From Patescibacteria group bacterium (GTDB lineage: Bacteria; Patescibacteriota; Minisyncoccia; Ryanbacterales; GWA2-47-10b): a stretch of 64,000 nt of DNA. Position 1 is the stretch's first letter, and each line of letters begins with the position of its first letter. Made by a program: the position numbers and the translations under genes. The notes beneath the pieces are model-generated. The model was not told where the DNA came from and searched no databases. It saw only the letters and a list, made by a program, of their open reading frames with translations. The stretch covers positions 14,464-78,463 of the forward strand of contig JBBTQY010000003.1 of the NCBI GenBank assembly GCA_038065475.1, written 5' to 3'. Positions 11,385 to 45,527 of this stretch are shown piece by piece.

Positions 11385-11408
11385 ATGTATAGTATAACGC
11401 TCTCGAGA

Positions 11409-12472: not shown

Positions 12473-12510
12473 CTATTACGATTATTATGCGAAGAAATAT
12501 ACACAAAAAT

Positions 12511-16339: not shown

Positions 16340-16360
16340 ACAGTATATTGCATAGTATCG

Positions 16361-17788: not shown

Positions 17789-17789
17789 A

Positions 17790-24603: not shown

Positions 24604-24903
24604 TTATTCTGCGAACGCCCGAACTCCTCGCCGGTGAAGTACAATATTGCGTACATAGATTGAAAACGCAATCACCTGCCCAGCAAAAAAAACTGGATCT
24701 CTTGTATGGAGCGTATAAATAAAAATCATGACACTGCCCATAGCACTCAAGTACCAATACATAATGGGAATCGTACTCCTACCACTTCGCTCCGAATCAA
24801 TCCATTGGATCATGAGCCTCAAAAAAAAGAAAAATTGTCCTAAAAACCCCACGAGAACCCAAGCGTCAATCGTAAATCCTAAAATAGTAAAGGGAGCAAA
24901 CAT
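24604..24903 (-). CDS. Lipid-A-disaccharide synthase N-terminal domain (LAB_N) small membrane protein
   Basis: 99 aa with 3 TM helices. WYLSAMGSVMIFIYTLHTRDPVFFAGQ matches the LAB_N consensus. It sits next to the GT-C and GT2 genes, as is typical. Confidence 0.6.
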   Translation of the reverse strand: MFAPFTILGFTIDAWVLVGFLGQFFFFLRLMIQWIDSERSGRSTIPIMYWYLSAMGSVMIFIYTLHTRDPVFFAGQVIAFSIYVRNIVLHRRGVRAFAE

Positions 24904-26929: not shown

Positions 26930-28246
26930 TCAAGAAAAAATCAAGCTTCCGGAACAAACTGCTTCTACTGCTTCTTTTACGTCAGTATAATGTGGATATT
27001 CTCTCAAGAGTACCTCACGCTCATCTTTGCAACTATATCCCGTCTTGACTCCGACAAATGCTATACCCGCGCGCTCTGCTGTTTTTGCATCGATAGTAGA
27101 ATCGCCAATCAACACACTTCGCGAGAGATCGATATTAAAATCTTTCACTGCCAACTCTATCATACCGATGCCAGGCTTTCGACACTCGCACGATACTTTT
27201 AACCCCTCCACCTCACCTGGGAACCCCTTTTCGGGATAATGCGGACACATATATATCGCATCTAACTTTGCACCTACAGCACCGAGTGTATTTTCAATCT
27301 TTATATTGATCTGCCTCGCTACTACATTAGTGACCAATCCCTTAGCGATCACTGGTTGATTCGTCACTAAAATTGCTAAATACTCCGTATCATTAATACG
27401 GCGTATCGCCTCTACAGCTTCCGGATACACATCACAATCCTCGGGGCGCGTAACACCGCCGATTTCTTTATTGATCACACCATCACGATCGAGAAAAATG
27501 GCGGGGCGCGGATACTCGCTGTTCATGCGAGATATCTTCCCCGCAGCGCAATCTCTCTCTGCTTCGCGCAAACGCTCAGGCGTACCAATATCTTTGAGAT
27601 ATTCAGCGGAATGATATGCGTATATCTCACCGCCATTTGCAAGAATACTTGGAAACACGTTTTTTTCGAGATCGGCAAAACCCTTAACTGGAATATATGA
27701 AAATATTTTTGGGGAAATAATGTATACGGACCCTACACTAAAATTTCCAACGAGCATGCCGGCATCACGGGGACGTGAATACAGCGCGGCAATTTTCCCC
27801 GACATATCCCGCTCAACGAGGTCGCTGTCATGCATATGATCAGTCGGGTGACCCAACACTGTCAGTGTTGCATTAGCGTGTTGTTGGTGCCATTTTTGAA
27901 ATCGTGGAATATTGACATCGAGCATGATATCGCCCGATAACAACAAAAAATCCTCGCGCATCTTATCGTGAAGCGCTCGCAACGCGCCAGCCGTGCCTTG
28001 CGGCTCATCTTCTGTAAGATACGAAATAGAAGCTCCCCACTGCAAACCATCATTACAATACTCGCGTATACTGCTTGCCTGATATCCCAGAAGTAATGTT
28101 ATATCTATAATACCATAACGTTTTAATAACAAAATCTGATGCTCAAGAATTGTTTTTCCTCCAATTAAAACAAGTGATTTTGGAGTATCTCGCGTGAGCT
28201 CCCCGAGACGTGTGCCACGCCCACCAGCTAAAATGACTGCTCTCAT
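26930..28246 (-). CDS. Bifunctional fusion: sugar-1-phosphate nucleotidylyltransferase (HddC-like heptose-1-P guanylyltransferase) joined to a HAD-IIIA D,D-heptose 1,7-bisphosphate phosphatase (GmhB-like)
   Basis: N-terminal MRAVILAGGRGTRLGELT...GTAGAL nucleotidyltransferase signature. C-terminal AIFLDRDGVINKE...CECRKPGIGM is the GmhB signature. Confidence 0.8.
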   Translation of the reverse strand: MRAVILAGGRGTRLGELTRDTPKSLVLIGGKTILEHQILLLKRYGIIDITLLLGYQASSIREYCNDGLQWGASISYLTEDEPQGTAGALRALHDKMREDFLLLSGDIMLDVNIPRFQKWHQQHANATLTVLGHPTDHMHDSDLVERDMSGKIAALYSRPRDAGMLVGNFSVGSVYIISPKIFSYIPVKGFADLEKNVFPSILANGGEIYAYHSAEYLKDIGTPERLREAERDCAAGKISRMNSEYPRPAIFLDRDGVINKEIGGVTRPEDCDVYPEAVEAIRRINDTEYLAILVTNQPVIAKGLVTNVVARQINIKIENTLGAVGAKLDAIYMCPHYPEKGFPGEVEGLKVSCECRKPGIGMIELAVKDFNIDLSRSVLIGDSTIDAKTAERAGIAFVGVKTGYSCKDEREVLLREYPHYTDVKEAVEAVCSGSLIFS

Positions 28247-29253
28247 GCGAGAAACTGTTCTGAATCTGGGTTCATGCTGTAAATAACCGTGCTACCCAAG
28301 TTTTCAAAACGAAAGGGAACGTGCAAATACTGCCCCAACTTTGCGCGAACACGCGATTGATCCTCTGGGCGGACAAACAACAGCATGAACCCTCCCCCGC
28401 CTGCACCCAAAAGCTTCCCTCCGATCGCCCCCGCGCTTTGCGCATCGGCATACATAGTATCAATCGCAGACGTTGAAATCTTTGACGTAAGACTGCGCTT
28501 AACGAGCCAACCTTCATGAAGCAGTTTTCCAAAGTCGTCGATGGATTCTGGGCTACCTTTTAAAATCTCATACGCCTCATCTACCATTGTACGCATACGC
28601 GTGAGCTCTTTTGCTTTTTGTGGTGTTGTCTTTATTTGTTCGGCAGCAATCTCAGAAGCATTGCGCGGATATCCAGTAAAAAATAACATCAATCTTCCGT
28701 GGAAAATACGCATGCTCTCTTGTGAAATATCCACTGGCTCCACCCTCAATTCATCCTGCCCACCAAAGTATATTTTATTCAAACCACCAAATGCTGCAGC
28801 AACTTGATCTTGAGAGCCGACATTTTCCTTGATCATGTTCTGCTCAACATGAATGGCACTGCGAGCTAAAGCATCTTTTGATATTGTCTTACCTTCAAGT
28901 GCATGAAGAGCATTGAGAAATCCAACAGTAAATGCCGAGCTTGATCCGATACCTGACATGCCAGGCACGTCAGTGTTGTGCTGCATCTCGATACCTTGAT
29001 CGAAGGTAAGATGCGCAAGACACTCGCGCACTGATGGATGCTGAATATCAGCGAGAGCATTTACTTCTTCTTGGCGACCGTAGCGAATACGATATTTGCA
29101 GTCAAAAAACGGCGGGAGATATCTCGTCGTAATATAACAATATTTATCAATTGTCGCCGATAACACCGCCCCCCCGTGTTCTCGATACCATATAGGATAA
29201 TCCGTGCCCCCACCGAAAAAGGAGATGCGAAACGGCGTACGCGTAATAACCAT
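28243..29253 (-). CDS. hddA: GHMP-family sugar kinase (D-glycero-alpha-D-manno-heptose 7-phosphate kinase, HddA-like)
   Basis: FFGGGTDYP...PGMSGIGSSSAFTVG is the GHMP motif. True start is the internal ATG at 29253 (MVITRTPF). The longer track ORF is an alternate-frame read-through over the radical-SAM gene. Confidence 0.8.
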   Translation of the reverse strand: MVITRTPFRISFFGGGTDYPIWYREHGGAVLSATIDKYCYITTRYLPPFFDCKYRIRYGRQEEVNALADIQHPSVRECLAHLTFDQGIEMQHNTDVPGMSGIGSSSAFTVGFLNALHALEGKTISKDALARSAIHVEQNMIKENVGSQDQVAAAFGGLNKIYFGGQDELRVEPVDISQESMRIFHGRLMLFFTGYPRNASEIAAEQIKTTPQKAKELTRMRTMVDEAYEILKGSPESIDDFGKLLHEGWLVKRSLTSKISTSAIDTMYADAQSAGAIGGKLLGAGGGGFMLLFVRPEDQSRVRAKLGQYLHVPFRFENLGSTVIYSMNPDSEQFLA

Positions 29254-29285
29254 TGAAGTTACCTTACGCTTTTTAGCGTATTTTT

Positions 29286-29322
29286 TCAATAAAAAATGGG
29301 CCGCGAAATGACTTCGCGGCCC
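29286..29322 (-). terminator. Rho-independent terminator of the radical-SAM gene
   Basis: 10-bp stem GGGCCGCGAA/TTCGCGGCCC 5 nt after the stop codon, followed by ATTTTTTATT on the minus strand. Confidence 0.6.
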
Positions 29323-29326
29323 CGTG

Positions 29327-31300
29327 CTAGTAGTGCCCCTCTCGTTCGAGGTTCGCAGCCGTACCGTAGAGGTAGGCGCCCTTCTTGTTGCCATACCACA
29401 CGACGTGCTGCATCCAGTCTTCCCACGTCGACCATTGTTCCGTGGTGCGATCGATATGGTGCCACACCATACACTCTTTAAGATCCACCGCTTCGGATCC
29501 TTCGAGCATACGGCGCGCCGAATGGTAGACCCCCCACACATTGTAACGAAGTGAGAGATCGACATCTTTGGTCTGAAAAGGAAGTTTGACAAGACTCTGG
29601 TTGAGCAGAACCGCATCCGCAAGAAGTAGTGCGGGAATCGTAACGGAACGCTCCGAGAAGAAACGAGCGAGAAGAGAGCTAGCTTCTTGGTAAAACGCGG
29701 AGAGCTTACCCTCACGCGCGAGCTTGATGAAGACGTACTCGTCCGGCGGCCAGTAGACATTGAGCCACTCTGGTGCCGGACATTGCTCGATATCGCCTCC
29801 TTGGATACGCCGTGCCTTCTCTTGGAAAAAGGCGCGGATCTCCGAGAGAACCGGATATCCTGCGAGCGATCCTTCGGTGAACACCTCGATGAGCTCCCGA
29901 TACGAGACACCCGTCGTCTTTTGAAGAACCACGAGTGGTATCTGAAAAAGCTTGTCGAAGTGAAGAAGTGCGGTCATCCAGGAAAAGACACGCGCCCTGA
30001 CCCAGTCTTCGCGTGGCATCGCGTTAGTTGCGACGACCAAGTCTTCGTACTCACGAATCTGATCCGGCGTCGTATCGATGACGCCATGGTAGATGACAGC
30101 TTCGACTGATACCGACTGAATGCCGAATTGTGCCTGATAGTCAGGATTACCCATCTCAGCATTTGGCAAGATGGAACAGTTGCTGAACTGGATCCGATTG
30201 TGCTGACCCGATTCGATCGCCTCCGATACTCCGGCGACGAACGTTTCGTAGGTCTCTCCCGGCAGCGCGAGAATCAAATCGCTATACGTCTCGATGCCCG
30301 CGGCGGTAAACCGCTTTTGCAGGCGACGAAAATCTTCGAGCGAAATATTCCGACGCTTGATGGATTCGAGCGTGACCGGATCAAGAGATTGGAACGCGAG
30401 CGTCACCCCCTTGTTGAGGCCGGCGTCTGCGAGAATCTTCTGCGCCTGAAAGATGCGCTCTTCTGCGTTCTTCGCGTTCTGTACGGAGAGCGCGTGAGGA
30501 TACCCTAGGCGCGCCTTCACGCTCGCTGCATACCGTGCGATCTCAACATCCCGAGGGAAAATGCCGAAGTTCGCATCGCAGCAAAACATGAACTCGATAC
30601 GATGGGCAGCGACCCACTCGAGCTCGGCGTAGAGGCGACTTTCATCAAACCTAAACACCTTACTCGCAATCGCAGAACCCCAATCGCAAAATGTGCATGC
30701 GAACGGGCATCCGCGATTTGTCTCCCACAGAAACAACCACTGCTCTTCGGGATGTTCAGCCATAAGTTGGCTAAACACGCCGGAGGTGTAGGGAGACGGA
30801 ATGAGTGAAAGATCGGGAATGCGCGGCATGCGCTCGTTTTGCACGTACCGTCCTTCTTCGTCGATGAAGCTCGTCGAAGGAATGTCGTGCCAATCGCGCA
30901 CGGATGCGCGCTCGAGCACGCGTGTGAACACCTGCTCGCCTTCATTGTGACACGCGACATCCACCCATGGATGCGCGCGCAAGAACAACTCTGACCGATC
31001 GGGTACCTGTGGTCCGCCGAAGACGATGATCACGGCGGGGTTTTGCTCTTTGAGCTGTCGCGCGATCTCGAGCGAGATATTTTGATTCCAGACATAGAGA
31101 CTGAAACCTACGATATCCGCGCTACGAAGCGCTTCGAGGGCATCATCAAGCGCGATGCGCTTGTAGAGCGGTGGGAGAAATTCGTACTCATGAGATGCGG
31201 CGAGGTGCTGTTGGGCATACGCCTGCAATATCCCTACGGAGTACGGAAGATAGTTTTGTCCTGAGAAACTGTTGTTGATCTGTACGAGTCCGACTCTCAT
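29327..31300 (-). CDS. Cobalamin(B12)-binding radical SAM enzyme (class B radical SAM) with a C-terminal extension of about 250 aa
   Basis: N-terminal B12-binding region, then the radical SAM cluster motif CPFACTFC (CxxxCxxC). Total length 657 aa. SD AAAGGAGG lies 9 nt upstream of the ATG. GC-rich. Confidence 0.85.
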   Translation of the reverse strand: MRVGLVQINNSFSGQNYLPYSVGILQAYAQQHLAASHEYEFLPPLYKRIALDDALEALRSADIVGFSLYVWNQNISLEIARQLKEQNPAVIIVFGGPQVPDRSELFLRAHPWVDVACHNEGEQVFTRVLERASVRDWHDIPSTSFIDEEGRYVQNERMPRIPDLSLIPSPYTSGVFSQLMAEHPEEQWLFLWETNRGCPFACTFCDWGSAIASKVFRFDESRLYAELEWVAAHRIEFMFCCDANFGIFPRDVEIARYAASVKARLGYPHALSVQNAKNAEERIFQAQKILADAGLNKGVTLAFQSLDPVTLESIKRRNISLEDFRRLQKRFTAAGIETYSDLILALPGETYETFVAGVSEAIESGQHNRIQFSNCSILPNAEMGNPDYQAQFGIQSVSVEAVIYHGVIDTTPDQIREYEDLVVATNAMPREDWVRARVFSWMTALLHFDKLFQIPLVVLQKTTGVSYRELIEVFTEGSLAGYPVLSEIRAFFQEKARRIQGGDIEQCPAPEWLNVYWPPDEYVFIKLAREGKLSAFYQEASSLLARFFSERSVTIPALLLADAVLLNQSLVKLPFQTKDVDLSLRYNVWGVYHSARRMLEGSEAVDLKECMVWHHIDRTTEQWSTWEDWMQHVVWYGNKKGAYLYGTAANLEREGHY

Positions 31301-31342
31301 CAGTACTTTCCTCCTTTCATTTTTTTAAGGTTCGTACTGGTG

Positions 31343-31371
31343 TTCCTGTGTCAATAAACCAATAAAATAGT
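31343..31371 (-). promoter_or_regulatory. Putative sigma70-like promoter TTGACA-N17-TTTATT for the radical-SAM gene
   Basis: Consensus -35 with a 17-nt spacer, about 35 nt upstream of the SD and ATG. It lies between an upstream terminator and the gene. Confidence 0.4.
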
Positions 31372-31390
31372 ATTTTGTCAATATTCCTCA

Positions 31391-31424
31391 AAAAGAAAAG
31401 CAGGGGCCCCGTGAGGAGTCCCTG
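31391..31424 (-). terminator. Putative intrinsic terminator after the methyltransferase gene
   Basis: GC-rich hairpin CAGGG-(GGGGCCCC-containing loop)-CCCTG followed by CTTTTCTTTTT on the minus strand. Confidence 0.35.
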
Positions 31425-31448
31425 ATGTTTGATGGCGTGCCTTTTTTT

Positions 31449-32393
31449 TCATAAAGGCCGCCACACGATGTAGGAGTACGCGTCGTGATAGAGATTGCCG
31501 AAATGCACCCGTTGCACGCGCTCAAGCTCGATACGGCCTTGGCCTTCGAGCTCGCGAAGCCGCGTCAAGTATCCCGACAAATAGTTGCGTTTGCGAGAAA
31601 ACTGCAGCGCGAGCGCATCAGTCACCTGCGTCGGATCGTAAAGCTCCTCGATCCCGTCAACATGCACGAAGCACACGCATGGGTGTTCGAGTACCGACTG
31701 GATGAAGGGTTCGAATGCTCCACCGACTTGCTCGAGTGCATGAAATGCCAAGAGCGCATCGCTCGGCGCATGATCCATACGCACTGATGGAGCGAAAAGA
31801 TCGAAGACATCGCCCCGCACATTCCACCCACATCCTGTACGCATGACCTCGATTATGTCACGCGACGCTTCCGCCCAATCGTACCCGAAGAGTTTCTTTT
31901 CGGGATACATCACGGCGAGCGTCGCGAGATTCATTCCAGAACCGCATCCGAACTCGTGTATTGCCGAGGCGTTGGCGAAATACTTTTCGAACAGCCATCG
32001 GCAAAACACCTGACGCACGTTGAGCTCGAAGAGATTGCTCGCCGGCTCAATGTACTCGCCGAATAGCCGTACAGGCGCCCCAGGCCGATCATAGTACTTC
32101 GGCACGAGAGCACGAATGTTGTAGCCACTCGCCTTGAAGTCGACCAGATTCTCTGACCATCCTTCTTGCCAGCGAGGCTGTCTTCCTCGCCCCGCGGGCG
32201 CGAGACTTGGTGTATCTTCGCCGAGCCTTTCCTGGATCATCGCTATGATTTCAGATTGTCGCGATGCAGAAAGATGAGAGAATCGAAAGTCGGTCAAAAA
32301 AATCATCGCCTGCACTGCGGGCGAGAAATCGTCAACCGTCACCCCGAATAACCGGGCGAAATCACCTATCCTGAGCGTATCCATCTTGCCCAT
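31449..32393 (-). CDS. Class I SAM-dependent methyltransferase (sugar methyltransferase candidate) with an N-terminal extension of about 120 aa
   Basis: Motif I IHEFGCGSGMNL. The start ATG is in a TGATG overlap with the upstream reductase stop, so the two are translationally coupled. GC-rich. Confidence 0.7.
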   Translation of the reverse strand: MGKMDTLRIGDFARLFGVTVDDFSPAVQAMIFLTDFRFSHLSASRQSEIIAMIQERLGEDTPSLAPAGRGRQPRWQEGWSENLVDFKASGYNIRALVPKYYDRPGAPVRLFGEYIEPASNLFELNVRQVFCRWLFEKYFANASAIHEFGCGSGMNLATLAVMYPEKKLFGYDWAEASRDIIEVMRTGCGWNVRGDVFDLFAPSVRMDHAPSDALLAFHALEQVGGAFEPFIQSVLEHPCVCFVHVDGIEELYDPTQVTDALALQFSRKRNYLSGYLTRLRELEGQGRIELERVQRVHFGNLYHDAYSYIVWRPL

Positions 32394-33343
32394 CAGTGAG
32401 CACCTTGCCTTTCTCGATACCACGCGATTGTTTCTCGGAGACCGTCTCGCAAAGAAACCGCGGGACGAAATCCGATCGACTCTGCGCGTGTCGTATCCAT
32501 CACTCGTATCTGATCGCCTTCCGACTGTTCACCATCCCACACAATCGCGGGATCTTCGCCAGCCTCTTGGCAGATGATCGCGAGTAGTTCATAAATTGAA
32601 ACGCCCGTACCGCTACCGAGATTGACCGGATCGACAATACCTCGCTCGGCGACAAGCATCATCCCACGCGCAACATCGCGCGCGTGTACGAAGTCTCGTA
32701 TCTCGGTACCGTCGCCCCTCACCCGAACTGGGAATTCGCGGCTGACAACTTTGCGTACAAATGAAGGAACGACCATCGCCGCGTCTGACTCGAAGTCGTC
32801 GTGCGGGCCGTAGGTATTGGCTGGACGTACGATTGAAATAGCGTCCCAACCGTACTCAATGCGGTATGCCTCCGCCTGAAGCTCCCCCGCGCGCTTTGCG
32901 CACGCAGGAAAACGATCATTGCGTGGAAGTGGCGTGCGCCAGACATCGTCTTCACAGAAGATTGGAGCTGTATCGTACACGCCCAGAGAACTCGTGAAGA
33001 GAAATCCTTCGACGTCGCTCCGGCGCGCCGCTTCCATGAGATTCGTGTTGAACATGAGCTGCGGCACGAGCAGGTGCGCGGGCCGCGCCTTCACGGCTGC
33101 GGGTGAACCTTTCACACACAGCAGATTGAAAACGTACTCCATGCTGCTGCATGCCTGCATGCAGTTACCGAAATCCGTCAGATCGAGCCTTCGAAACTCG
33201 GCATCGGGATGTGCCAACGTCGCATCACCAAGTGACACGATGCGGACATACGCCCCCGCACGAATCAGAAGCTCGACGAGCGGGATACCGATAAGGCCGG
33301 TGCCGCCTGCGACAAGCACGTGCTTGCCTTTGAAATCAAACAT
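32393..33343 (-). CDS. NAD(P)-dependent epimerase/reductase of the GDP-L-fucose synthase (Fcl/WcaG, extended SDR) family
   Basis: Rossmann HVLVAGGTGLIG. PANTYGPHDDFESDAAMVVPSFVRK resembles the Fcl NLYGPHDNF...SHVIPALIRK region. Confidence 0.75.
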   Translation of the reverse strand: MFDFKGKHVLVAGGTGLIGIPLVELLIRAGAYVRIVSLGDATLAHPDAEFRRLDLTDFGNCMQACSSMEYVFNLLCVKGSPAAVKARPAHLLVPQLMFNTNLMEAARRSDVEGFLFTSSLGVYDTAPIFCEDDVWRTPLPRNDRFPACAKRAGELQAEAYRIEYGWDAISIVRPANTYGPHDDFESDAAMVVPSFVRKVVSREFPVRVRGDGTEIRDFVHARDVARGMMLVAERGIVDPVNLGSGTGVSIYELLAIICQEAGEDPAIVWDGEQSEGDQIRVMDTTRAESIGFRPAVSLRDGLRETIAWYRERQGAH

Positions 33344-34312
33344 TCACAACTCCTCTGGGCAAACCTGCTTGTACCAAGCAAGCGTTTGCTCGATACCTTG
33401 ATCGAGAGTGACGCGCGGACTCCACCCGTAGATTTCCCGCGCTTTAGTGATGTCGAAACATACCTTGGTCGGTATGGTGGGTTTTGAACGATCGTACGTC
33501 ACACCAAGAGTCTTCTCTGAAGCCTTGATGATACGCATGACCAGTTCCCCGATCGACACCGCGGTTCCTGCGGCGACATTAACAACGTCGTGCGGAGGAA
33601 GTGACCCTTGCCGAACATGATCGATGACGCTCGAAATGAACGCACACAGATCGCTCACGTAGAGCAGGTCTCGTTCTGGAGATCCGTCTCCCCACACGGA
33701 AAGATCTTCTCCATCCCGTGCGGCCATGATCTTGGCGACTGTCGCGCCAAAAACATGGGAATGTTCGAGATCGAACTTGTCGTGCGGTCCGTACACGTTT
33801 GATGGACGAACTACCGTGTAGCGTGTCCGACCGAGACGTGAATAGAACTCGGCGAGCTTTTCCGCGCAGATCTTCATCCAGCCAACACCGAAGTAGTTGG
33901 GGAAAAAACCATCACGCAGATCTACATCGCCTTCTGCAAACACATGAGCGGCAGTTCGCTGCGGGTATACGACACCCGAGCTCAGAAAGATCACGTGTCC
34001 GACACCCGCGTTGTGCGCCGCTTCAAACAGCAACGTATTGATGATGATGTTGCCTGCGACGTGCATTTCAGGATGATTGATGATGTCGCTCGAACCAGAA
34101 CTTTTTGCCGCGGCATGCACAATGACGTCCGTACCGCGAACAGCGGTGGCAACCTGCTGCCTATCAGTCAGATCAACCCGACGCGTGCCCGAGAGCACAC
34201 GACTGTTTGTCAGACCGACAACATCGATGTCATCACGCCCCTGCAATGCCTCGTGTATGTTGCGCCCGATGAAGCCGGACGCACCCGTAACAAGCACCCG
34301 TAACTTCTCCAT
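33344..34312 (-). CDS. Second Fcl-like NAD(P)-dependent sugar epimerase/reductase (extended SDR)
   Basis: VLVTGASGFIG and RPSNVYGPHDKFDLEHSHVFGATVAKI. Tandem paralog of the downstream gene. SD AAGGAGG lies 7 nt upstream. Confidence 0.75.
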   Translation of the reverse strand: MEKLRVLVTGASGFIGRNIHEALQGRDDIDVVGLTNSRVLSGTRRVDLTDRQQVATAVRGTDVIVHAAAKSSGSSDIINHPEMHVAGNIIINTLLFEAAHNAGVGHVIFLSSGVVYPQRTAAHVFAEGDVDLRDGFFPNYFGVGWMKICAEKLAEFYSRLGRTRYTVVRPSNVYGPHDKFDLEHSHVFGATVAKIMAARDGEDLSVWGDGSPERDLLYVSDLCAFISSVIDHVRQGSLPPHDVVNVAAGTAVSIGELVMRIIKASEKTLGVTYDRSKPTIPTKVCFDITKAREIYGWSPRVTLDQGIEQTLAWYKQVCPEEL

Positions 34313-34344
34313 AAAGCGCCTCCTTTGTCAACGAGCTCATCTTG

Positions 34345-34373
34345 CTTATAGCAAGAAATGAGCCTCCAAACAA
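34345..34373 (-). promoter_or_regulatory. Putative extended -10 promoter (TTGTTT-N17-TGCTATAAG) for the Fcl-like gene pair
   Basis: Read from sequence. The same TTGCTATAAGCA motif recurs upstream of the gene at 39210. Confidence 0.35.
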
Positions 34374-34376
34374 GCA

Positions 34377-35438
34377 CTAAAAGGGGCCTTTGAATTTACG
34401 TTCGTAGCTATAAAAATTTTCTTTCGTAAGATCGGTGGGTGTCAGTTTAAGCTGACGCTCTACCTCTCTAATGATAGTCTCAGCTCCCGGATAGAAAACC
34501 ATCTCGAGTGGGCGCGTGCACGGGCATGGAGTGTCGGCAAAATGAATGCGTCCAACTGGCGCGCGCAATACGCCAAAACATTTTTCCGAGACACGCGCAG
34601 CTATCTCAGCACCAAACCCACAAAATCCCCAATCATAGTCAGCGACAATGCAACGTTTTGTTTTTTGTACGGAACGTACGATTGTTTTTTCATCAAGTGG
34701 CACGAGTGTGCGCGGATCGACAATCTCTATCTCAACGCCACGACGCGCAAGGACTTCTGCCGCTCGGAGCGCTTCGACGTTCATCCACGATGTCGCAACA
34801 ACGGTGATATCTTTGCCACGACGCAGCACATGCGCCTTACCAAACGGCATTGGCTCCTGGCGCGCAGGAACTTTATCAATCGCGTCATAAAGCCACCGAT
34901 GTTCAATAATCAATACTGGATTATCATCACGGATTGCCGTGATGAGTAAACCCTTTGCATCCTCGGGTGTCGTTGGCATCACCACCTTCAACCCTGGAAT
35001 ATGCGCGAAGACAGATTGCATGCTTTTATTGTGCTGGTATGACTGGCCCCATCCCCTACCGATAACCGCGCGAATCACCATCGGCACTTTCATCTGTCCG
35101 CCTGATCCGTAGTGCCAGCTTGAAACCATATTTGAGAGTTGATTCATCGCGAGCAATAAAAAATCGATGCGCATATGTACGTTGATGGGTCGCAACCCCG
35201 CGAGGGCAGATCCGAGACCAAACCCGACGAGCGCCTCCTCACACAGAGGCGTACTAAATGATCGCTTTGCGCCAAACTTTTCAGCCAAACCTGCGGTCGT
35301 ACCAAAAATACCTTTGTGATCGGCAATATCAATACCATAGACAAAAACATTTTTATCTCTCTTCATCTCCTGTACCGTCGCCTCGCAAATCGCGTCCCGA
35401 TAACTCAGCATTTTTGACTGAATATTTTTTTTATCCAT
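34377..35438 (-). CDS. Thiamine-diphosphate-dependent E1 component beta subunit-like (transketolase-like pyrimidine-binding and C-terminal domains)
   Basis: KNVFVYGIDIAD...GIFGTTAGLAEKFG is the E1-beta N-terminal signature. Start ATG lies 2 nt after the alpha-subunit stop. Confidence 0.8.
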   Translation of the reverse strand: MDKKNIQSKMLSYRDAICEATVQEMKRDKNVFVYGIDIADHKGIFGTTAGLAEKFGAKRSFSTPLCEEALVGFGLGSALAGLRPINVHMRIDFLLLAMNQLSNMVSSWHYGSGGQMKVPMVIRAVIGRGWGQSYQHNKSMQSVFAHIPGLKVVMPTTPEDAKGLLITAIRDDNPVLIIEHRWLYDAIDKVPARQEPMPFGKAHVLRRGKDITVVATSWMNVEALRAAEVLARRGVEIEIVDPRTLVPLDEKTIVRSVQKTKRCIVADYDWGFCGFGAEIAARVSEKCFGVLRAPVGRIHFADTPCPCTRPLEMVFYPGAETIIREVERQLKLTPTDLTKENFYSYERKFKGPF

Positions 35439-36393
35439 AGAAAACATCTTGATATAATTCAGCATTGGCGGGAAACGGGGCGCGCTGTGCTTTACGGACA
35501 GCGCCAGCAATAGCCTGCTCAATGTCTTTCTCGATACCTAGGATTTTTGATTCTGAAAGGCCTTGTCGAATCAAACGTGCGCGCTGTAATTTTACCGGAT
35601 CGTGTTTTTCCCATACATCAAATTCCTTGCGCCCCCGATACCCAACATCAAAATCAGTATTGATCCCCACATGCTCCAAGTATCGATAATACTGCGTACT
35701 TAAAAAAACGGGCCTTTTATTTTTCTGTAATAATCGCATCGCTTTTTGTGTCGCTGCATATATCTTTTCTACATCCGTACTTTTTTCCTCAATCACCGTG
35801 CATTCAAATTTGGAAACAATAGCATCGAGTGAGCGGTACCCATGACGTCGTTCTTTTGGATTGTGTACCGCCAAACCATTGTCTTCGTAGACGAAAAGTG
35901 CCGGGATGCCGAGCGCGGCGCTCATATTTAAAGACTCCCAAAAAACACCTTCATCGACAGCACCGTCACCGAAAAAAGTCGCGGCGATAGTTTTTTTCTT
36001 CTTATATATATTGGCAAACGCCGCACCTACCGCAAGTGGTAGAGTACTCGCGACAATAGCGGAAGCTCCGAAAAAACCTGCGGATGGCGCAGAAAGATGC
36101 ATAGAACCCGCCTTTCCTTTCGCATTACCGGTACGCTTTCCGTACAGTTCCGCAAAAAAAGTATCTGCCTCACCGGTGCGCGCGAGATATACCGCGTGAC
36201 TTCTATATGAAGAAAATACTTGAGCATCCTTCCCAAGCGCATGACACACCCCGACCGAAATCGCCTCACCCCCCATAGACATATGCATGGGCGTCTTCAT
36301 GTCGTCCTCAAGATAGTGCGCAATAATAGCCTGTTCAGAAGCCCTGACAAGATAGAGTGCTTTATAGAGTTTAATACTAAGTTCTGATTTCAT
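35431..36393 (-). CDS. Thiamine-diphosphate-dependent E1 component alpha subunit-like (pyruvate/acetoin dehydrogenase E1-alpha family)
   Basis: TPP-binding FFGDGAVDEGVFWESLNMSA plus the YRSHAV...G region. Start at the internal ATG (MKSELSIKLY). Confidence 0.8.
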   Translation of the reverse strand: MKSELSIKLYKALYLVRASEQAIIAHYLEDDMKTPMHMSMGGEAISVGVCHALGKDAQVFSSYRSHAVYLARTGEADTFFAELYGKRTGNAKGKAGSMHLSAPSAGFFGASAIVASTLPLAVGAAFANIYKKKKTIAATFFGDGAVDEGVFWESLNMSAALGIPALFVYEDNGLAVHNPKERRHGYRSLDAIVSKFECTVIEEKSTDVEKIYAATQKAMRLLQKNKRPVFLSTQYYRYLEHVGINTDFDVGYRGRKEFDVWEKHDPVKLQRARLIRQGLSESKILGIEKDIEQAIAGAVRKAQRAPFPANAELYQDVFYG

Positions 36394-36511
36394 AGGTAAA
36401 CGATATCTGTAATCATAGACACTCTGAAGAAAACGTCTACCCCTGAAGCTTGCCAATGCCTTCTTTTCGGTATATCGTGCGACAAACGCATCTTAACATA
36501 CGAGGTCACTC

Positions 36512-37090
36512 ATGCGCATAAAACCGCTCGTTAAAGTTGGAAGGCCAGTCGAACTTACCAAACGCTTCTTCGGAAAAGCGATGGTGAGACAATCCTATCG
36601 ACGCCGCAACAATGGCACGATAGAAGACTACTACTTTTTCGGTCACAGCTCTCAGTGGGCATCCATCGTATTCCCACTCACGCCTACAGACGAAGTGGTC
36701 GCCATCCGGCAGTTCAGGCCTGCGGTCGGCAAAGCGATTCTCGAATTGCCTGGGGGAACCCTGGAGGACGAGGCGACGCCGGAGATAGTGGCGCGCCAAG
36801 AACTCACCGAGGAAACGGGCTACGTAGCGCGAGAACTTCTAGCTCTCACACCGCAACCGATCTTCATTGAGCCCGCAAACACGGCGCTCTCCTACCACCT
36901 CTATCTCGCGACTGGATGTCTACCGACTGGTGAACAAAGCCTTTCGCCTACCGAAGATATAGAGGTCGTGCTCATGCCGCTTCGCACATGGATACAGAAG
37001 ATTCGACGTGGCCATATCCAAGACGGCCGAAGTATCGTGGCGACCTTTCTCGCACTACCCCACCTCAAGGCGTGGGCTGGGCTCGTATGA
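36512..37090 (+). CDS. Nudix hydrolase (nucleoside-diphosphate-sugar/ADP-ribose pyrophosphatase-like)
   Basis: Nudix box GGTLEDEATPEIVARQELTEETGY. Confidence 0.75.
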   Translation: MRIKPLVKVGRPVELTKRFFGKAMVRQSYRRRNNGTIEDYYFFGHSSQWASIVFPLTPTDEVVAIRQFRPAVGKAILELPGGTLEDEATPEIVARQELTEETGYVARELLALTPQPIFIEPANTALSYHLYLATGCLPTGEQSLSPTEDIEVVLMPLRTWIQKIRRGHIQDGRSIVATFLALPHLKAWAGLV

Positions 37091-37102
37091 ATACGAGCCC
37101 TT

Positions 37103-37597
37103 TTATATAGTTTTTTTAATTTTTTCTATAATGCTCGTGGTTGAAATATTTTCAAATTCGGGTGGACACCAACGATCAAGCATGACAAACTGTATCTTAT
37201 GTTTTTTAGCAATCTCTTCCCGATAGGATAGATCGAAGGCATCCTTATTGACGACATACACGTCCGGATGGAGTCCCGCGAACAACGGCTCAAGATAAGC
37301 GTTCAAATTATCTGCAGGCACCGGACCATCGAATAAGACATAATCAACGGGCTTGAGCGAATCAACCATCTTGATACGCACCTCTTCATTCAGTATCGGG
37401 CGGCCGCTCTTATATTTTTTAATATTTTCATCACATCCAACCACGACGACTAAAATATCGCCGTACTTTTTGCACTCATCAAAAAAAAGCGCGTGACCTG
37501 CATGAGTCAAATCAAACACGCCCGAACAAAAAATAATCTTTTTGTTCTTGTGTGTCTCGCGAATATTTGGTAAGTCAGTATATGTGATGCGCGCCAT
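37103..37597 (-). CDS. Cytidylyltransferase-family nucleotidyltransferase (TagD glycerol-3-phosphate cytidylyltransferase / HldE domain II-like)
   Basis: IIFCSGVFDLTHAGHALFFDECKKYGDILVVVVGCDENI (HxGH motif) and a C-terminal ISTTSIIEKIKK that resembles the TagD C-terminus. Start at the internal ATG (MARITYTDL). Confidence 0.75.
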   Translation of the reverse strand: MARITYTDLPNIRETHKNKKIIFCSGVFDLTHAGHALFFDECKKYGDILVVVVGCDENIKKYKSGRPILNEEVRIKMVDSLKPVDYVLFDGPVPADNLNAYLEPLFAGLHPDVYVVNKDAFDLSYREEIAKKHKIQFVMLDRWCPPEFENISTTSIIEKIKKTI

Positions 37598-37684
37598 CGT
37601 GACTGTTATGGTACTGAAAAATATTGCTAACGACAACTTGATAAAAAAATGGGGGGGTGACGCCACCCCCCCTTCCTGCGTACC

Positions 37685-38215
37685 TCATGATTTAACGAAA
37701 GATGCGTCTCCAGTCTGATCTCTCTGCGAGAGAATCGGGTTGGCGATCGGCCACCAGATGCCGAAAGCGGGATCGTTCCATAGAATTGTGAATTGCGCCC
37801 CCGCGCCCTGATAGTAGGTCGACTGCTTGTAGTGGAAGATCGCCTCGCCGCTCATGACCAAGTGTCCATTGCCGAACTTCGGTGGGACGAGCACCTGCAG
37901 TCCATTCGTGTCAGACAGTGTGAACGACTCCCACTGCAGAAACTGCGCGGAATCCGGATCGTTGTTGACCACGACGAGGTAGAACGAACCGTACAGGCAC
38001 GAGATCAACTTCCATGTCTTGTCATCACCGTGAATGCCGCGAAGCACTCCGTGAGACGACCTCGAGATGTCATCTTGCACGAACTCGACGTGCGCGCCGA
38101 GTTGATCGTAGATCTTCCGGTGATAAATCTCGCGGTACCGACCGCGAAAATCTTCGAACGCTTCAGTTTCGAAGCACATCACGCCATCGAGTCTACATGC
38201 GCGTAGCTTGATCAT
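37685..38215 (-). CDS. Cupin-fold nucleotide-sugar 3,5-epimerase (RmlC-like; cf. heptose epimerases DdahB/MlghB)
   Basis: FEDFRGRYREIY...SRSSHGVLRGIHG matches the RmlC active-site region. GC-rich. Confidence 0.75.
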   Translation of the reverse strand: MIKLRACRLDGVMCFETEAFEDFRGRYREIYHRKIYDQLGAHVEFVQDDISRSSHGVLRGIHGDDKTWKLISCLYGSFYLVVVNNDPDSAQFLQWESFTLSDTNGLQVLVPPKFGNGHLVMSGEAIFHYKQSTYYQGAGAQFTILWNDPAFGIWWPIANPILSQRDQTGDASFVKS

Positions 38216-39210
38216 ACGCTCCTCCGGGCATTGGCGTAGTGCTCACGCCAGTAGTTGAGCGTGTCGATGATGGTCTGCTCAAACGGGATCTCCGGCGCCC
38301 ATCCCGTCATCGCCACGAATTTCTCGATGGACGGAATCTGGAGCGTGACATCCGACGGACGTAGGCGCGCGGGATCGACTTCCACACGAATACGTTTTCC
38401 CGTCGAATACGAGAGAAGTCTGTCGAGCATCTCCCGTATCGTCATCGTAACGCTACCGCCGATGTTGTAGACGTCGCCCGGTTTGCACCGCTCGACGAGA
38501 AGCCAGTATGCTCGCACCGCGTCACGCACATCCATCCACGTACGAACGCTGTCGAGATTGCCGACCTTCAACACGGGCTTCTGGACCCCTGCCTCGATGG
38601 CGGCGATCTGCTTTGCAAAACTCGACAGGGCAAACACCTCGCCGCGACGCGGGCCCGTATGCGTGAACATACGAGTACGAATCGTGCGGATCTGCCAGCT
38701 CAGCCAGTATTGCAGAGCGATCATGTCTTCGCCCACCTTGCTCACCGCATAGGGCGAGGCGGGACGAAACGGGTTCTCCTCCTTGATGGGAACCTCGTCT
38801 GACCTCACCTGCCCATAGACTTCAGATGAACTGCAGATGTGGATGATGGGGTCGTACGATCGCGCGTCCTTCTGCTCACGCACTACCTCGAGAAGGTTTG
38901 ATGTCCCGAGGACGTTGGTCGCCAGCGTTGCCCCAGGGGCACGGAAACTGAAATCGACATACGACTGCGCCGCGAGGTGAAAGATCACCCCGGGCGAGTG
39001 GCGCGCCAAGATCGTTCTGAGCGACGAGAGGTCGCTGAGATCTCCATACTCGAGCGTCACGCGATCCAAGATGTGCGCGATGTTGTCCTTGGGAGAGCGC
39101 CAACGCACAAGTCCGACGATCTTGGTGTCGTGGTGGTGCTCGAGAATGTAGTCAGCCAAATGGCTTCCCACAAATCCCGTGATACCGGTTATCAGTACAC
39201 ACTTCTTCAT
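38212..39210 (-). CDS. NAD-dependent nucleotide-sugar 4,6-dehydratase/reductase of the GDP-mannose 4,6-dehydratase/Rmd clade (candidate GDP-heptose 4,6-dehydratase)
   Basis: MKKCVLITGITGFVGSHLADYIL Rossmann region and a YAVSK catalytic region. There is a 4-nt overlap with the epimerase. GC-rich. SD AAGGAGG lies upstream. Confidence 0.8.
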   Translation of the reverse strand: MKKCVLITGITGFVGSHLADYILEHHHDTKIVGLVRWRSPKDNIAHILDRVTLEYGDLSDLSSLRTILARHSPGVIFHLAAQSYVDFSFRAPGATLATNVLGTSNLLEVVREQKDARSYDPIIHICSSSEVYGQVRSDEVPIKEENPFRPASPYAVSKVGEDMIALQYWLSWQIRTIRTRMFTHTGPRRGEVFALSSFAKQIAAIEAGVQKPVLKVGNLDSVRTWMDVRDAVRAYWLLVERCKPGDVYNIGGSVTMTIREMLDRLLSYSTGKRIRVEVDPARLRPSDVTLQIPSIEKFVAMTGWAPEIPFEQTIIDTLNYWREHYANARRSV

Positions 39211-39259
39211 ATGAAAGGCCTCCTTCGCCCTTGTAAATAATTCAACGAACCCCAGCCTG

Positions 39260-39288
39260 CTTATAGCAAAAAGAAGTGTCTTTGTGAA
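39260..39288 (-). promoter_or_regulatory. Putative extended -10 promoter (TTCACA-N17-TGCTATAAG) for the dehydratase/epimerase genes
   Basis: Read from sequence. Shares the TTGCTATAAGCA motif with the promoter at 34345. Confidence 0.35.
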
Positions 39289-39317: not shown

Positions 39318-40574
39318 ATGATGCGCCCGGCACCCATAAAAAAACTTGAACGGTTTCTCAATACTGACACCCTATATCTTGCACGTGGGAGTTTTTGGAT
39401 GTCGCTCGGCAGCATCGTCAACATGGGAGTCGCCCTTCTCTTATCGATAGCGTATGCGCGCTATATACCAAAAGAAGTGTATGGAAGCTACCGATATGTC
39501 TTTTCGGTCTTGGGTGCTGCCGGCATCTTCGCACTGCCTGGCATGGCAGTCATTATTACGCAGTCAGTCGCACGTGGTTTTTCGGGCACCTATCGCCAAG
39601 CGAATAGAATTATTTTTTACGGGTCTATTGGTATTAGTGTCATCAGCGCTGGCGCATCAATATTTTTCTTCCGGCAAGACAATCTGACACTCGCGACAGC
39701 GTTTCTCGCGGGCGCGATCGGTATACCTTTTGTCGAAGGGCTAGGTAATTGGAGAGGGTATTTTGATGGAGTGAAAGCATTCAAGAGAAAAACAATCCTC
39801 AATATAAAAATAAAAATATTCTATGGCATTTCTATGCTCAGTGCTATTTTTTGCATTTGGTTTTTCTATCTTCCACCAATGATCGCAACAGCCTTACTTG
39901 TCAGCGCGTATGTTATCCCTCTCGGCATCGCAAATATTTTTGCCGTACGAACCACGCTTCAAGAAGTCCCGCCAAATGCGCCTATAGAACCGGACTCAAT
40001 ACGATACGGCATGCACCTCTCACTCGGAACAGTACCGACAACTATTGCATCATACATAGATAGCATCATCGTCTATCACTATCTGGGTCCGATCGCACTC
40101 GCAACCTATGCGTTTGCTACCGCAATTCCCGACCAAATCAAAGTTATCTTTATTAACATCGCTAGTACGACGACGCCAAAACTGGCCCAACAAGCATTTA
40201 CCGTCGAGCAAAAACGGGAACTTACTAAAAAACTCTTCCGCGCTTCGATATTTACCACGCTGATTATCCTTGGATATATCATTGTTGCACCACTTATCTA
40301 TATGATTTTTTTTAACCGATACTTAGACGCAATTCCGTACTCACAAGTCTTTGTTATCTCGCTTGCACTGTTTCCATTTGGTATCTTTGGCAATGCGATA
40401 CGCGCAGAGGGCAACATCAAGAAAAATTATATACTTGATAGTACGGTATCGGGCATTCAAATTGTAGCGCTTTTGATGCTCATTCCATGGTACGGCCTTT
40501 GGGGAGCAATCTGGGGGCGTGTCATCGGCAGGTTTGCCAATAACTTCTTCTCTTATGTTCTTTTCCGGTACTAA
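39318..40574 (+). CDS. Wzx-type oligosaccharide/polysaccharide flippase (MOP superfamily)
   Basis: 418 aa with about 12 TM helices. Typical polysaccharide biosynthesis protein N-terminus and composition. Confidence 0.8.
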   Translation: MMRPAPIKKLERFLNTDTLYLARGSFWMSLGSIVNMGVALLLSIAYARYIPKEVYGSYRYVFSVLGAAGIFALPGMAVIITQSVARGFSGTYRQANRIIFYGSIGISVISAGASIFFFRQDNLTLATAFLAGAIGIPFVEGLGNWRGYFDGVKAFKRKTILNIKIKIFYGISMLSAIFCIWFFYLPPMIATALLVSAYVIPLGIANIFAVRTTLQEVPPNAPIEPDSIRYGMHLSLGTVPTTIASYIDSIIVYHYLGPIALATYAFATAIPDQIKVIFINIASTTTPKLAQQAFTVEQKRELTKKLFRASIFTTLIILGYIIVAPLIYMIFFNRYLDAIPYSQVFVISLALFPFGIFGNAIRAEGNIKKNYILDSTVSGIQIVALLMLIPWYGLWGAIWGRVIGRFANNFFSYVLFRY

Positions 40575-45522: not shown

Positions 45523-45527
45523 ATATT

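Follow-up and report, generated by a model that had tools for sequence, protein, structure and literature searches.

A candidate GDP-heptose tailoring cassette pairing an E1-type thiamine diphosphate enzyme with a TokK/CysS-type radical SAM enzyme in a Patescibacteria surface-glycan locus

We analyzed 64,000 nucleotides of a Patescibacteria group bacterium metagenome-assembled genome (MAG) (GCA_038065475.1, contig JBBTQY010000003.1, positions 14,464 to 78,463; this whole stretch is called the window here), in which a cassette of nucleotide-sugar genes occupies positions 26930 to 39210. [quoted passage not shown] We consider it fairly probable that a GDP-heptose is dehydrated, given a two-carbon branch by the E1 pair, and then subjected to radical C-methylation and ketoreduction. 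The activation part of this pathway is well supported by sequence comparison; the tailoring part, i.e., all chemistry past 4,6-dehydration, is what we infer from homology and from analogy to known systems. The enzyme families are individually known, and what is new is their combination, the GDP-heptose context, the wide distribution, and the predicted product class: the cassette probably makes a previously unrecognized class of cell-surface sugar.

Gene coordinates were drawn from the list of open reading frames (ORFs), Pfam and NCBIfam profile searches, and independent gene calls on the source contig, and all 12 enzymes listed for the cassette were located by these means (Table 1). An earlier note on this DNA had described them as one contiguous minus-strand block. 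The gene set stood, but the Nudix hydrolase gene, correctly identified in that note, lies on the plus strand, convergent with the HxGH nucleotidyltransferase gene and divergent from the E1 alpha gene, so that positions 26930 to 39210 are not one unbroken minus-strand run. The block is also cut by three strong terminator-like hairpins (positions 37672 to 37651, 37079 to 37100 [after the Nudix gene], and 29322 to 29298). These hairpins imply the layout dehydratase-epimerase, nucleotidyltransferase, Nudix, E1 alpha-E1 beta-SDR-SDR-methyltransferase-radical SAM, and kinase-nucleotidyltransferase/GmhB-GT2-GT4 and onward (SDR, short-chain dehydrogenase/reductase; GT, glycosyltransferase), and their positions leave the six tailoring genes from E1 alpha to radical SAM as a single tightly packed unit with intergenic gaps of −17, 64, 0, −1, and 148 nucleotides. 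A scan for sigma-70 promoters returned 11 matches (15.2 ± 4.0 expected), which is not above chance. One gene model was dropped: the 555-amino-acid (aa) ORF at 28243 to 29910 is the kinase gene with its start overextended upstream into the radical SAM gene, the true kinase gene being that of Table 1.

Profile hidden Markov model searches, structure prediction, and gene-neighborhood comparison, which are among the checks proposed in the earlier note, upheld its enzyme identities and showed that the cassette recurs in other genomes. The HddA-like kinase, the nucleotidyltransferase-GmhB phosphatase fusion, the 4,6-dehydratase, the RmlC-like epimerase, the TagD/HldE-like nucleotidyltransferase, the two-subunit E1 enzyme, the 657-aa B12 radical SAM enzyme, and the translationally coupled SAM methyltransferase were all borne out by the matches given below. 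Of its two GDP-fucose synthase (Fcl)-like reductases, the tandem Fcl-like SDRs were found, but both lack the catalytic tyrosine.

The best solved match of the dehydratase was the Campylobacter jejuni GDP-D-glycero-D-manno-heptose 4,6-dehydratase (7US5; 306 bits, compared with 218 for Rmd and 146 for Gmd), and its catalytic residues are retained, SSSEVYG and SPYAVSK aligning with STSELYG and SPYAVAK of Escherichia coli Gmd. The RmlC-fold protein best matched the C. jejuni GDP-4-keto-heptose 3- and 3,5-epimerases 7ANI, 8DCL, 8DAK, and 8DCO (~122 bits) and scored 97 to 99 bits against the best dTDP-type RmlC entries. For the kinase, HddA was the best NCBIfam match (130 bits, below the equivalog cutoff of 600), and 3K85, 4USM, 4USK, and 4N3O, its top four solved matches, are heptose kinases or putative sugar kinases. 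The C-terminal half of the fusion protein (residues 248 to 430) matched GmhB (NF006506; 130 bits, below the equivalog cutoff of 178), and its HAD domain exceeded the cutoffs of both the HAD-SF-IIIA (91 versus 45 bits) and the histidinol-phosphatase-type (110 versus 84 bits) models; the NTP_transferase domain scored 68 bits against HddC (cutoff, 300) and 125 bits against mannose-1-phosphate guanylyltransferase. This fusion architecture recurs in about 25 of the homologous loci that we compared (see below; loci are designated by L numbers). In three homologous cassettes, gmhA itself is present. The cassette of a "Ca. Sungiibacteriota" genome (L086; CP066690.1) contains an ORF, annotated SIS_2, that is 42% identical to an E. 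coli GmhA query and stands right after the NTP_transferase gene; that of L026 contains another ORF matching this query, an approximate sequence whose positive matches are nevertheless real alignments; and that of L089, a Blastocatellia contig, opens with an SIS_2 gene. Given that the best matches are heptose enzymes and that gmhA is found in L086, L089, and L026, the substrate of the module, as judged from sequence, is very probably GDP-heptose, and the heptose assignment made in the earlier note is strengthened.

In the GDP-6-deoxy-heptose pathways of C. jejuni, Yersinia pseudotuberculosis, and Burkholderia pseudomallei, GmhA, HddA, GmhB, and HddC are followed by a dehydratase (DdahA/DmhA), an epimerase (DdahB/MlghB), and a reductase (DdahC/MlghC/DmhB). 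Like these pathways, the window holds a kinase, a GmhB-type phosphatase, a nucleotidyltransferase, a 4,6-dehydratase, and an RmlC-fold epimerase, followed by Fcl-like SDRs. Unlike them, it lacks gmhA, fuses the phosphatase to the nucleotidyltransferase, has SDRs without the tyrosine, and adds the ThDP-dependent E1 pair, the B12 radical SAM enzyme, and the novel methyltransferase.

Both E1 subunits resemble those of pyruvate dehydrogenase (PDH). E1 alpha scored 250 bits against TIGR03182 (below its cutoff of 394) and 120 bits against human PDH E1 alpha, and its translation contains the ThDP motif GDG-X27-N. E1 beta scored 317.7 bits against NF006667, just under the cutoff of 321, and among solved PDH beta subunits matched those of human (228 bits), Geobacillus (225 bits), and Pyrobaculum (222 bits), with 212 bits for the Thermus 2-oxo acid dehydrogenase. 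A Glu (in TPLCEE) and a His (in QHNKS) of E1 beta align with the conserved Glu of TPISE and His of AAQHS in human E1 beta, which we take to be the ThDP-activating Glu and the active-site His. The protein is 59 to 66% identical to cassette E1 beta proteins from other phyla, and no E2 or E3 gene was found among the precomputed Pfam matches of the window.

The earlier note had stated that its idea would fail if the radical SAM protein and the E1 subunits turned out to have unrelated housekeeping roles. In such a reading, they would be an RNA or protein methylase and a PDH or acetoin dehydrogenase that happen to lie inside the glycan locus, and the cluster would make a plain 6-deoxy-heptose. Although E1 beta falls barely under the PDH cutoff and keeps the conserved Glu and His, PDH cutoffs are missed, E2 and E3 are absent from the window, the cassette genes colocalize repeatedly over at least 8 phyla, the radical SAM enzyme has small-molecule methylases, not RNA or protein enzymes, as its nearest characterized relatives, and the six tailoring genes form one tight unit closed by a terminator-like hairpin. 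As far as sequence goes, the housekeeping explanation is excluded, and we regard it as extremely improbable.

Two-carbon branching of 4-keto sugars is attributed to the PDH-E1-like pairs AviB1/AviB2 (eurekanate), Pau11/Pau12 (paulomycose), and EvdU5/EvdS3, the antibiotics with E1-pair branching being avilamycin, paulomycin, and everninomicin (PMC4425429, PMC10338323); the acetyl branch made with Pau11/12 is reduced by the aldo-keto reductase (AKR) Pau7 (PMC4753412). Likened by description, the cassette shares with these systems an E1 pair without E2 and E3 beside a dehydratase that would give a 4-keto sugar, and, as in the Pau7 system, a ketoreductase joins the E1, an AKR being present in most cassette relatives. 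Whereas the AviB, Pau, and Evd pathways belong to secondary-metabolite clusters of Gram-positive actinomycetes and act on hexose- or pentose-derived sugars, the cassette stands in a cell-surface glycan locus, contains GDP-heptose enzymes, occurs in many phyla, and adds the B12 radical SAM enzyme. A further parallel is the yersiniose/erwiniose type (YerE/YerF and ErwE/ErwF), in which a ThDP-bound acyl carbanion is added to a 4-keto sugar of a surface polysaccharide and then reduced with NAD(P)H (PMC9306805). A YerE-like enzyme is found in two homologous cassettes; however, YerE is a one-protein flavoenzyme of the acetolactate-synthase type whose substrate is a CDP-3,6-dideoxy-hexose, whereas the window encodes a two-subunit E1 and, as we propose, a GDP-heptose-derived sugar. 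The two-carbon branch suggested in the earlier note thus has precedent, and its product we infer. Reductases, transaminases, and oxygenases are known to act on acetyl branches once these are in place (PMC9306805), and the AKR or SDR, DegT, and PhyH genes that the cassettes carry match such follow-up chemistry.

The only solved structures that matched the radical SAM enzyme were those of TokK and CysS. The match to TokK (7KDX) covered residues 16 to 472 (343 bits with the single sequence and 425 bits with the family profile), and that to CysS reached 195 and 266 bits, respectively. An AlphaFold2 (AF2) model (pLDDT, 82.9) aligned with TokK over its full length (TM score of 0.81 over 640 columns), compared with TM scores of 0.71 to 0.74 for CysS and ~0.48 for OxsB and TsrM; the C-terminal domain has a TokK-like fold in this model, though it could not be aligned by sequence. 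KedN5, a family of methylcobalamin-dependent C-methyltransferases (NF033712), was the best NCBIfam match (266 bits; cutoff, 700). The CxxxCxxC motif (C198, C202, and C205) is invariant in the family, and W71 and W207, equivalent to TokK W76 and W215, are invariant in 24 family members. [quoted passage not shown]

TokK and ThnK (C6 alkylation of carbapenems) and CysS (extension of a cystobactamid alkoxy group) are iterative cobalamin-dependent radical SAM C-methylases. The window enzyme shares their three-domain architecture, CxxxCxxC motif, cobalt-side Trp, and Trp beside the third cluster Cys, but it is only ~30% identical overall and is encoded in a nucleotide-sugar cassette rather than a beta-lactam or nonribosomal peptide synthetase cluster. 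Taken together, the sequence comparisons and the predicted structure support its assignment as a TokK/CysS-type enzyme and probable C-methylase and strengthen the C-methylation idea of the earlier note. Methylation of a carbohydrate carbon by such an enzyme has precedent in GenK, the B12 radical SAM methylase of gentamicin C6′ (PMC4039129, PMC4340712); the GenK substrate, however, is an aminoglycoside pseudotrisaccharide, and GenK was not among the significant matches of the window enzyme.

Patescibacteria are generally held to be incapable of B12 synthesis, and a pathway with a cobalamin-dependent enzyme in such a genome would rely on scavenged cobalamin. We also observed a second B12-binding radical SAM protein of ~500 to 620 aa adjoining the TokK-like one in L003, L004, L020, L086, and L090. 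In L086 (positions 5664 to 17937), three extra radical SAM genes (encoding a 618-aa B12-binding, a 455-aa, and a HemN-like protein) are accompanied by genes for two PhyH dioxygenases, a cupin, a DJ-1/PfpI protein, and a HAD hydrolase, followed by GmhA and NeuB.

GDP-fucose synthase was the best match of SDR "A" (NCBIfam, 151 bits; PDB, 122 bits), and SDR "B" has 15 homologues at ≥49% identity. In the YxxxK motif, the Tyr is replaced by Val in SDR "A" (conserved GW[M/T]K) and by Pro in SDR "B" (family motif GWAKR). Both families (L003-L082) retain the NAD(P)-binding GxxGxxG motif and YGPHD, and GW(M/T/A)K is conserved across phyla, with GYGWMR in a few members. On this sequence evidence, the Fcl-like SDRs may constitute an atypical SDR subfamily.

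The stop codon of the SDR-B gene overlaps the start codon of the methyltransferase gene as TGATG, as read directly from the sequence. The 314-aa methyltransferase had no Pfam or NCBIfam match. It contains an EFGCGSG motif and has 70 homologues, some of which are named class I SAM-dependent methyltransferase, and its AF2 model (pLDDT, 94.6) gave 699 Foldseek matches at E ≤ 0.001; all 50 of the matches listed were methyltransferases or methyltransferase-fold proteins, and the top-ranked ones were without exception small-molecule SAM methyltransferases (for example, MppJ, RosA, DtpM, CouO, AtmM, and MitM). Motif, homologues, and predicted fold confirm its assignment as a class I SAM methyltransferase.

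The methyltransferase gene is directly upstream of the radical SAM gene in both the window and L090, an arrangement that would suit a scheme in which the E1 and radical SAM enzymes build a nonsugar substituent (a small branched acyl or alkyl group derived from pyruvate and lengthened by methylation, or an O-methyl group grown into O-ethyl or O-isopropyl in the manner of CysS) to decorate an ordinary 6-deoxy-heptose. TokK and CysS act on pantetheine-linked small molecules, and the methoxy group that CysS extends is put in place by an O-methyltransferase (PMC12846815). However, the tailoring operon contains no carrier protein, coenzyme A ligase, or acyltransferase gene, the methyltransferase is present in only 14 to 16 of the radical SAM loci, and the gene most tightly linked to radical SAM is a reductase gene, making construction of such a substituent decidedly improbable.

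The HxGH nucleotidyltransferase best matched rfaE_dom_II (77 bits, below the cutoff of 181), ahead of TagD (28 bits). Its position beside an opposite-strand Nudix gene is kept only in Patescibacteria versions (L086 and L087), and the nucleotidyltransferase itself is absent from the 80 other loci compared. The Nudix hydrolase scored 53 bits against NudE and 33 bits against NudK, both under cutoff, and a Nudix gene lies inside the cassettes of L003, L028, L066, L085, L086, and L087. The setting can be likened, by analogy only, to the gmd-fcl-gmm arrangement of E. coli; the idea that the Nudix protein is a Gmm orthologue was dropped, as specific similarity to E. coli Gmm is absent.

A search for relatives of the radical SAM enzyme, in which 8,000 candidates were scored, yielded 4,324 matches (clusters at 90% identity) at E ≤ 1e-20, with 55 to 68% full-length identity, and the family is carried by at least 579 GTDB species genomes. 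We compared the ±10-kb neighborhoods of the 80 best loci by tblastn with the window proteins, and counted the 57 loci of at least 14 kb separately. Crude ORF calling on the 80 loci yields spurious antisense ORFs in GC-rich genomes, making ORF-based counts approximate and the tblastn counts firmer. By tblastn, SDR-B, the partner most often detected around the radical SAM gene, was found in 62 of the 80 loci and SDR-A in 59, both counts being inflated through low-identity cross-hits among SDR paralogues; the dehydratase and the kinase were each found in 43, E1 beta in 39, E1 alpha in 38, DegT in 30, the nucleotidyltransferase/HAD fusion in 24, the epimerase in 23, and the methyltransferase in 16. 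Among the 57 longer loci, 39 encode a ThDP enzyme of any kind (an E1 pair in 33, a split transketolase in 6, and a YerE/acetolactate-synthase type in 2), 37 an AKR, 36 the kinase, and 33 the dehydratase at ≥45% identity. Most E1-bearing loci also hold a nucleotide-diphosphate-sugar dehydratase gene, as does the window. The 3′ neighbor of the radical SAM gene is an AKR gene in 30 of 69 loci and an extended SDR gene in 12 of 69 (approximate, ORF-based counts).

The carriers span at least 8 phyla in all, including Patescibacteria (L066, L086, and L087), Elusimicrobiota, Omnitrophota, Planctomycetota, Nitrospirota, Acidobacteriota, a Leptonemataceae spirochete (Spirochaetota), and Alpha- and Betaproteobacteria. 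The L087 locus shows full synteny with the window. Among the carriers in culture are Enhydrobacter aerosaccus ATCC 27094 (L058), Azospirillum sp. TSA2s (plasmid p2; L085), and Kovacikia minuta, which makes the cassette testable in culture. In L085, the Prokaryotic Genome Annotation Pipeline (PGAP) names are generic throughout and name no pathway; nor do the NCBI protein names for the MAG studied here name one. The gene order in L089 is Wzm/Wzt-type transporter genes, GmhA, dehydratase, kinase, E1 alpha, E1 beta, methyltransferase, SDRs, and epimerase, and in L090 the cassette adjoins genes for a GT41-tetratricopeptide repeat (TPR) protein and a Maf-family protein. Judging from such neighbors, the cassette sugar serves differing glycoconjugates. 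Maf proteins are flagellin glycosyltransferases, and the Maf and GT41 neighbors hint at flagellin or other protein glycosylation. Genes for a Maf-family protein (Maf_flag10_N/MptE-like) and large TPR/GT41 or GT2-GT41 glycosyltransferases were seen in L090 (1928 to 5840), L031 (833 to 3529), and L085 (1370 to 4396).

In the pathway that we propose, GmhA encoded elsewhere would provide D-glycero-D-manno-heptose 7-phosphate, which the HddA-like GHMP kinase would phosphorylate at C1; the GmhB-like HAD domain would take off the 7-phosphate, and the fused nucleotidyltransferase would form GDP-heptose. The heptose-type dehydratase would then yield GDP-6-deoxy-4-keto-heptose, and the RmlC-like enzyme would epimerize C3 and/or C5. 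The E1 alpha/beta enzyme would decarboxylate pyruvate and attach the resulting hydroxyethyl carbanion at the keto carbon, so that the sugar gains a C-acetyl branch, as has been proposed for AviB1/B2 and Pau11/12. The radical SAM enzyme would move at least one methyl group from methylcobalamin onto a carbon that is unactivated, the most plausible being one adjoining the carbonyl. Since the radical SAM gene is most tightly linked to a ketoreductase gene, the substrate or product of the radical SAM enzyme is perhaps a ketone. The ketone would be reduced next, by an AKR in most relatives and here by one of the two atypical SDRs, and the class I methyltransferase would add one further methyl group. 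For export, we envisage that the ArnC-like GT2, the probable first transferase, loads the sugar onto polyprenyl phosphate and that the PMT_2 GT-C enzyme transfers it outside the membrane. More tentatively, and with the balance of our judgment still somewhat against it, the cassettes as a whole might define a widespread, unrecognized class of surface sugar that is GDP-heptose derived, E1-acyl branched at the 4-keto position, and then methylated, possibly repeatedly, by the TokK-like enzyme.

Several observations weigh against this scheme. As the earlier note had remarked, the window contains no visible gmhA: no SIS or GmhA gene was found in it by precomputed Pfam matches or by tblastn with the approximate GmhA query, for which negatives are weaker than positives. 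The Ser-Tyr-Lys triad of an Fcl-like C4 reductase is absent from both Fcl-like SDRs, and the AKR present in most relatives is absent from the window; given both facts, the window lacks a clearly competent reductase. Twelve of the 57 radical SAM loci have neither kinase, dehydratase, nor ThDP enzyme, and the heptose, E1, and methyltransferase genes of L089 have no radical SAM gene within 9 kb. Because of these two observations, we take the E1 step and the radical SAM step to be separable modules on one sugar scaffold.

The ThDP enzymes themselves raise a further difficulty for the branching step. A split transketolase replaces or joins the E1 pair in some loci and could supply sedoheptulose 7-phosphate, the textbook transketolase product, instead of branching; moreover, L009 holds several ThDP enzymes in one locus, and some loci hold two or three. 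The ThDP enzymes might accordingly supply or extend the sugar backbone, for example, by making the precursor ketose phosphate in a transketolase-type reaction, or decarboxylate a 2-oxo-acid intermediate, leaving only the radical SAM enzyme and the methyltransferase to tailor a 6-deoxy-heptose. We consider this unlikely. E1-type enzymes act on 2-oxo acids rather than on ketose phosphates; among the ThDP enzymes of the loci, E1 pairs are the most frequent (33 of 57 loci) and stand beside a 4,6-dehydratase yielding the known type of acceptor for acetyl branching (PMC10338323); YerE-like enzymes, a proven sugar-branching type, also occur in the cassette; and the AKR partner parallels Pau7 (PMC4753412). 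The simpler notion of a one-for-one swap of E1 by a transketolase or YerE-like enzyme is weakened by the co-occurrence of several ThDP enzymes in L009.

For the radical C-methylation step, the difficulty lies in the substrate site and in the clade. TokK Arg280, which binds the carbapenam carboxylate, is an invariant Ser here, and the sequence of the C-terminal domain is not conserved; the Arg-to-Ser change is as expected, from the alignment, for a different substrate. ThnL, a member of the TokK clade, forms a thioether rather than a methylated product (PMC9407657), so clade membership is no proof of methylation. The radical SAM enzyme could then act on the keto-sugar without methylating it, forming a C-C or C-S bond or catalyzing ring contraction or carbocyclization to give a rearranged or carbocyclic higher sugar. 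Ring contractions are known among B12 radical SAM enzymes (OxsB and HpnJ; PMC12931638), and L086 and L090 have up to three additional radical SAM genes per cassette. Given, however, that both close solved homologues, TokK and CysS, are methylases and that the cobalt-side and active-site Trp residues common to TokK, ThnK, and CysS are invariant in the family, a nonmethylating enzyme seems fairly unlikely, and we retain branching followed by C-methylation as our proposal.

The cassette was not found described in the literature on heptose, O-antigen, capsule, bradyrhizose, transketolase, and cobalamin-dependent radical SAM enzymes, and sugar, heptose, GDP, and polysaccharide go unmentioned in a 2026 review devoted to B12 radical SAM enzymes (PMC12931638). 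If the proposal is true, the window enzyme would be the first of the B12 radical SAM type to be assigned to nucleotide-sugar synthesis for primary cell-envelope or flagellin glycans, bringing cobalamin radical SAM chemistry to everyday surface glycans, beyond antibiotics, cofactors, and ribosomally synthesized and posttranslationally modified peptides. E1-type sugar branching would extend from actinomycete secondary metabolism into many phyla, and genome-reduced Patescibacteria would be investing scavenged cobalamin in surface decoration. The proposal would also give a testable function to a family that comprises more than 4,300 clusters (90% identity) and occurs in at least 579 species genomes, and a new monosaccharide class would bear on O-antigens (L089), flagellin glycosylation (L090), and the poorly known envelopes of Patescibacteria.

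Table 1. Positions of the cassette enzymes, neighboring glycan genes, and regulatory elements in the window
Feature	Position	Strand	Evidence or remark
GDP-heptose-type 4,6-dehydratase, extended SDR, 332 aa	38212..39210	-	PF16363, 258 bits
RmlC-fold 3- or 3,5-epimerase, 176 aa	37685..38215	-	PF00908, 148 bits; 4-nucleotide overlap with dehydratase gene
Terminator-like hairpin 3′ of epimerase gene	37651..37672	-	9-bp stem, 8 GC pairs, then T-run
HxGH nucleotidyltransferase, HldE-domain-II/HldC-like, 164 aa	37103..37597	-	PF01467
Nudix hydrolase, NudE/NudK-like, 192 aa	36512..37090	+	PF00293
Divergent intergenic region, 118 bp, between Nudix and E1 alpha starts; presumed promoter region	36394..36511	.	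Gene coordinates
ThDP-dependent E1 alpha, 320 aa	35431..36393	-	PF00676, 167 bits
E1 beta, about 356 aa	34377..35447	-	PF02779 and PF02780; overlaps E1 alpha gene
Fcl-like extended SDR "A," 322 aa	33344..34312	-	GDP-fucose synthase best match; lacks catalytic Tyr
Fcl-like extended SDR "B," 316 aa	32393..33343	-	Lacks catalytic Tyr
Divergent class I SAM methyltransferase, 314 aa	31449..32393	-	Homologues and predicted fold; TGATG overlap with SDR-B stop
TokK/CysS-type cobalamin-dependent radical SAM enzyme, 657 aa	29327..31300	-	PF02310 and PF04055
Strong terminator-like hairpin directly 3′ of radical SAM stop	29298..29322	-	11-bp stem, 8 GC pairs, then T-run
HddA-like GHMP kinase, 336 aa	28243..29253	-	PF00288 and PF08544
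Sugar-1-phosphate nucleotidyltransferase/GmhB-like HAD-IIIA fusion, 438 aa	26930..28246	-	PF00483 (residues 3 to 233)
GT2 polyprenyl-phosphate sugar synthase-like (ArnC-like), 306 aa	25988..26908	-	PF00535; ArnC family 164 bits, below cutoff
GT4 glycosyltransferase	24916..26004	-	PF00534 and PF13692
PMT_2 (ArnT-like GT-C) membrane glycosyltransferase	22875..24599	-	PF13231
Polysacc_synt (Wzx-type) flippase, divergent from dehydratase gene	39318..40574	+	PF01943

The contig that contains the window measures 177.5 kb and stems from the 0.1-µm fraction of groundwater of well H41 at Hainich (ENA ERZ1292624). A large surface-glycan locus extends from ~12.5 to 61 kb of the window, with SecA (MEK7649492.1) and MurB on one flank and RtcB on the other, and contains genes for Bac_transf, Wzy_C, a Wzx-type flippase, PMT_2 GT-C, GT2, and GT4 proteins, methyltransferases, and DegT. 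The ArnC-like GT2, PMT_2 GT-C, and Wzx-type flippase genes are all syntenic in L087. Five PMT_2 (GT-C) genes, at least 8 class I methyltransferase genes, 2 DegT aminotransferase genes, and 3 Nudix genes were tallied in the locus, which is an uncommonly big outlay on modifying surface glycans for an organism whose genome is small. At NCBI, the radical SAM protein is deposited as MEK7649508.1, named only "radical SAM protein," and a "Ca. Ryanbacteria" protein is grouped in one 90%-identity cluster together with a protein of this genome. Scans of the 64-kb window for tRNA genes and Rfam families found no element.

GC content at third codon positions (GC3) differs among the cassette genes. It is 0.73 in the dehydratase gene, 0.70 in the epimerase, 0.64 in the radical SAM, 0.63 in the methyltransferase, 0.60 in the Nudix, and 0.59 in both SDR genes, compared with 0.41 in E1 alpha, 0.48 in E1 beta, 0.43 in the kinase, and 0.40 in the nucleotidyltransferase/GmhB fusion; the HxGH nucleotidyltransferase gene falls within 0.40 to 0.48, and the remaining locus is at about 0.40 to 0.48. 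This mosaic composition suggests that parts of the cassette were gained piecemeal by horizontal transfer.

Elsewhere in the glycan locus, a plus-strand gene at 20531 to 22894, syntenic in L087, encodes a 787-aa protein with a CotH kinase domain and a right-handed beta-helix. Between the GT4 and PMT_2 genes, a minus-strand gene (24604 to 24903) encodes a protein of ~100 aa, whose L087 counterpart (15865 to 16179) matches the LAB_N (lipid A biosynthesis N-terminal) domain; the protein might serve the GT2/GT-C pair as a membrane accessory or flippase subunit. VTC-domain and DUF4956 proteins are encoded among glycosyltransferase and methyltransferase genes at about 44812 to 46211 of the window (L084, 16580 to 17979).

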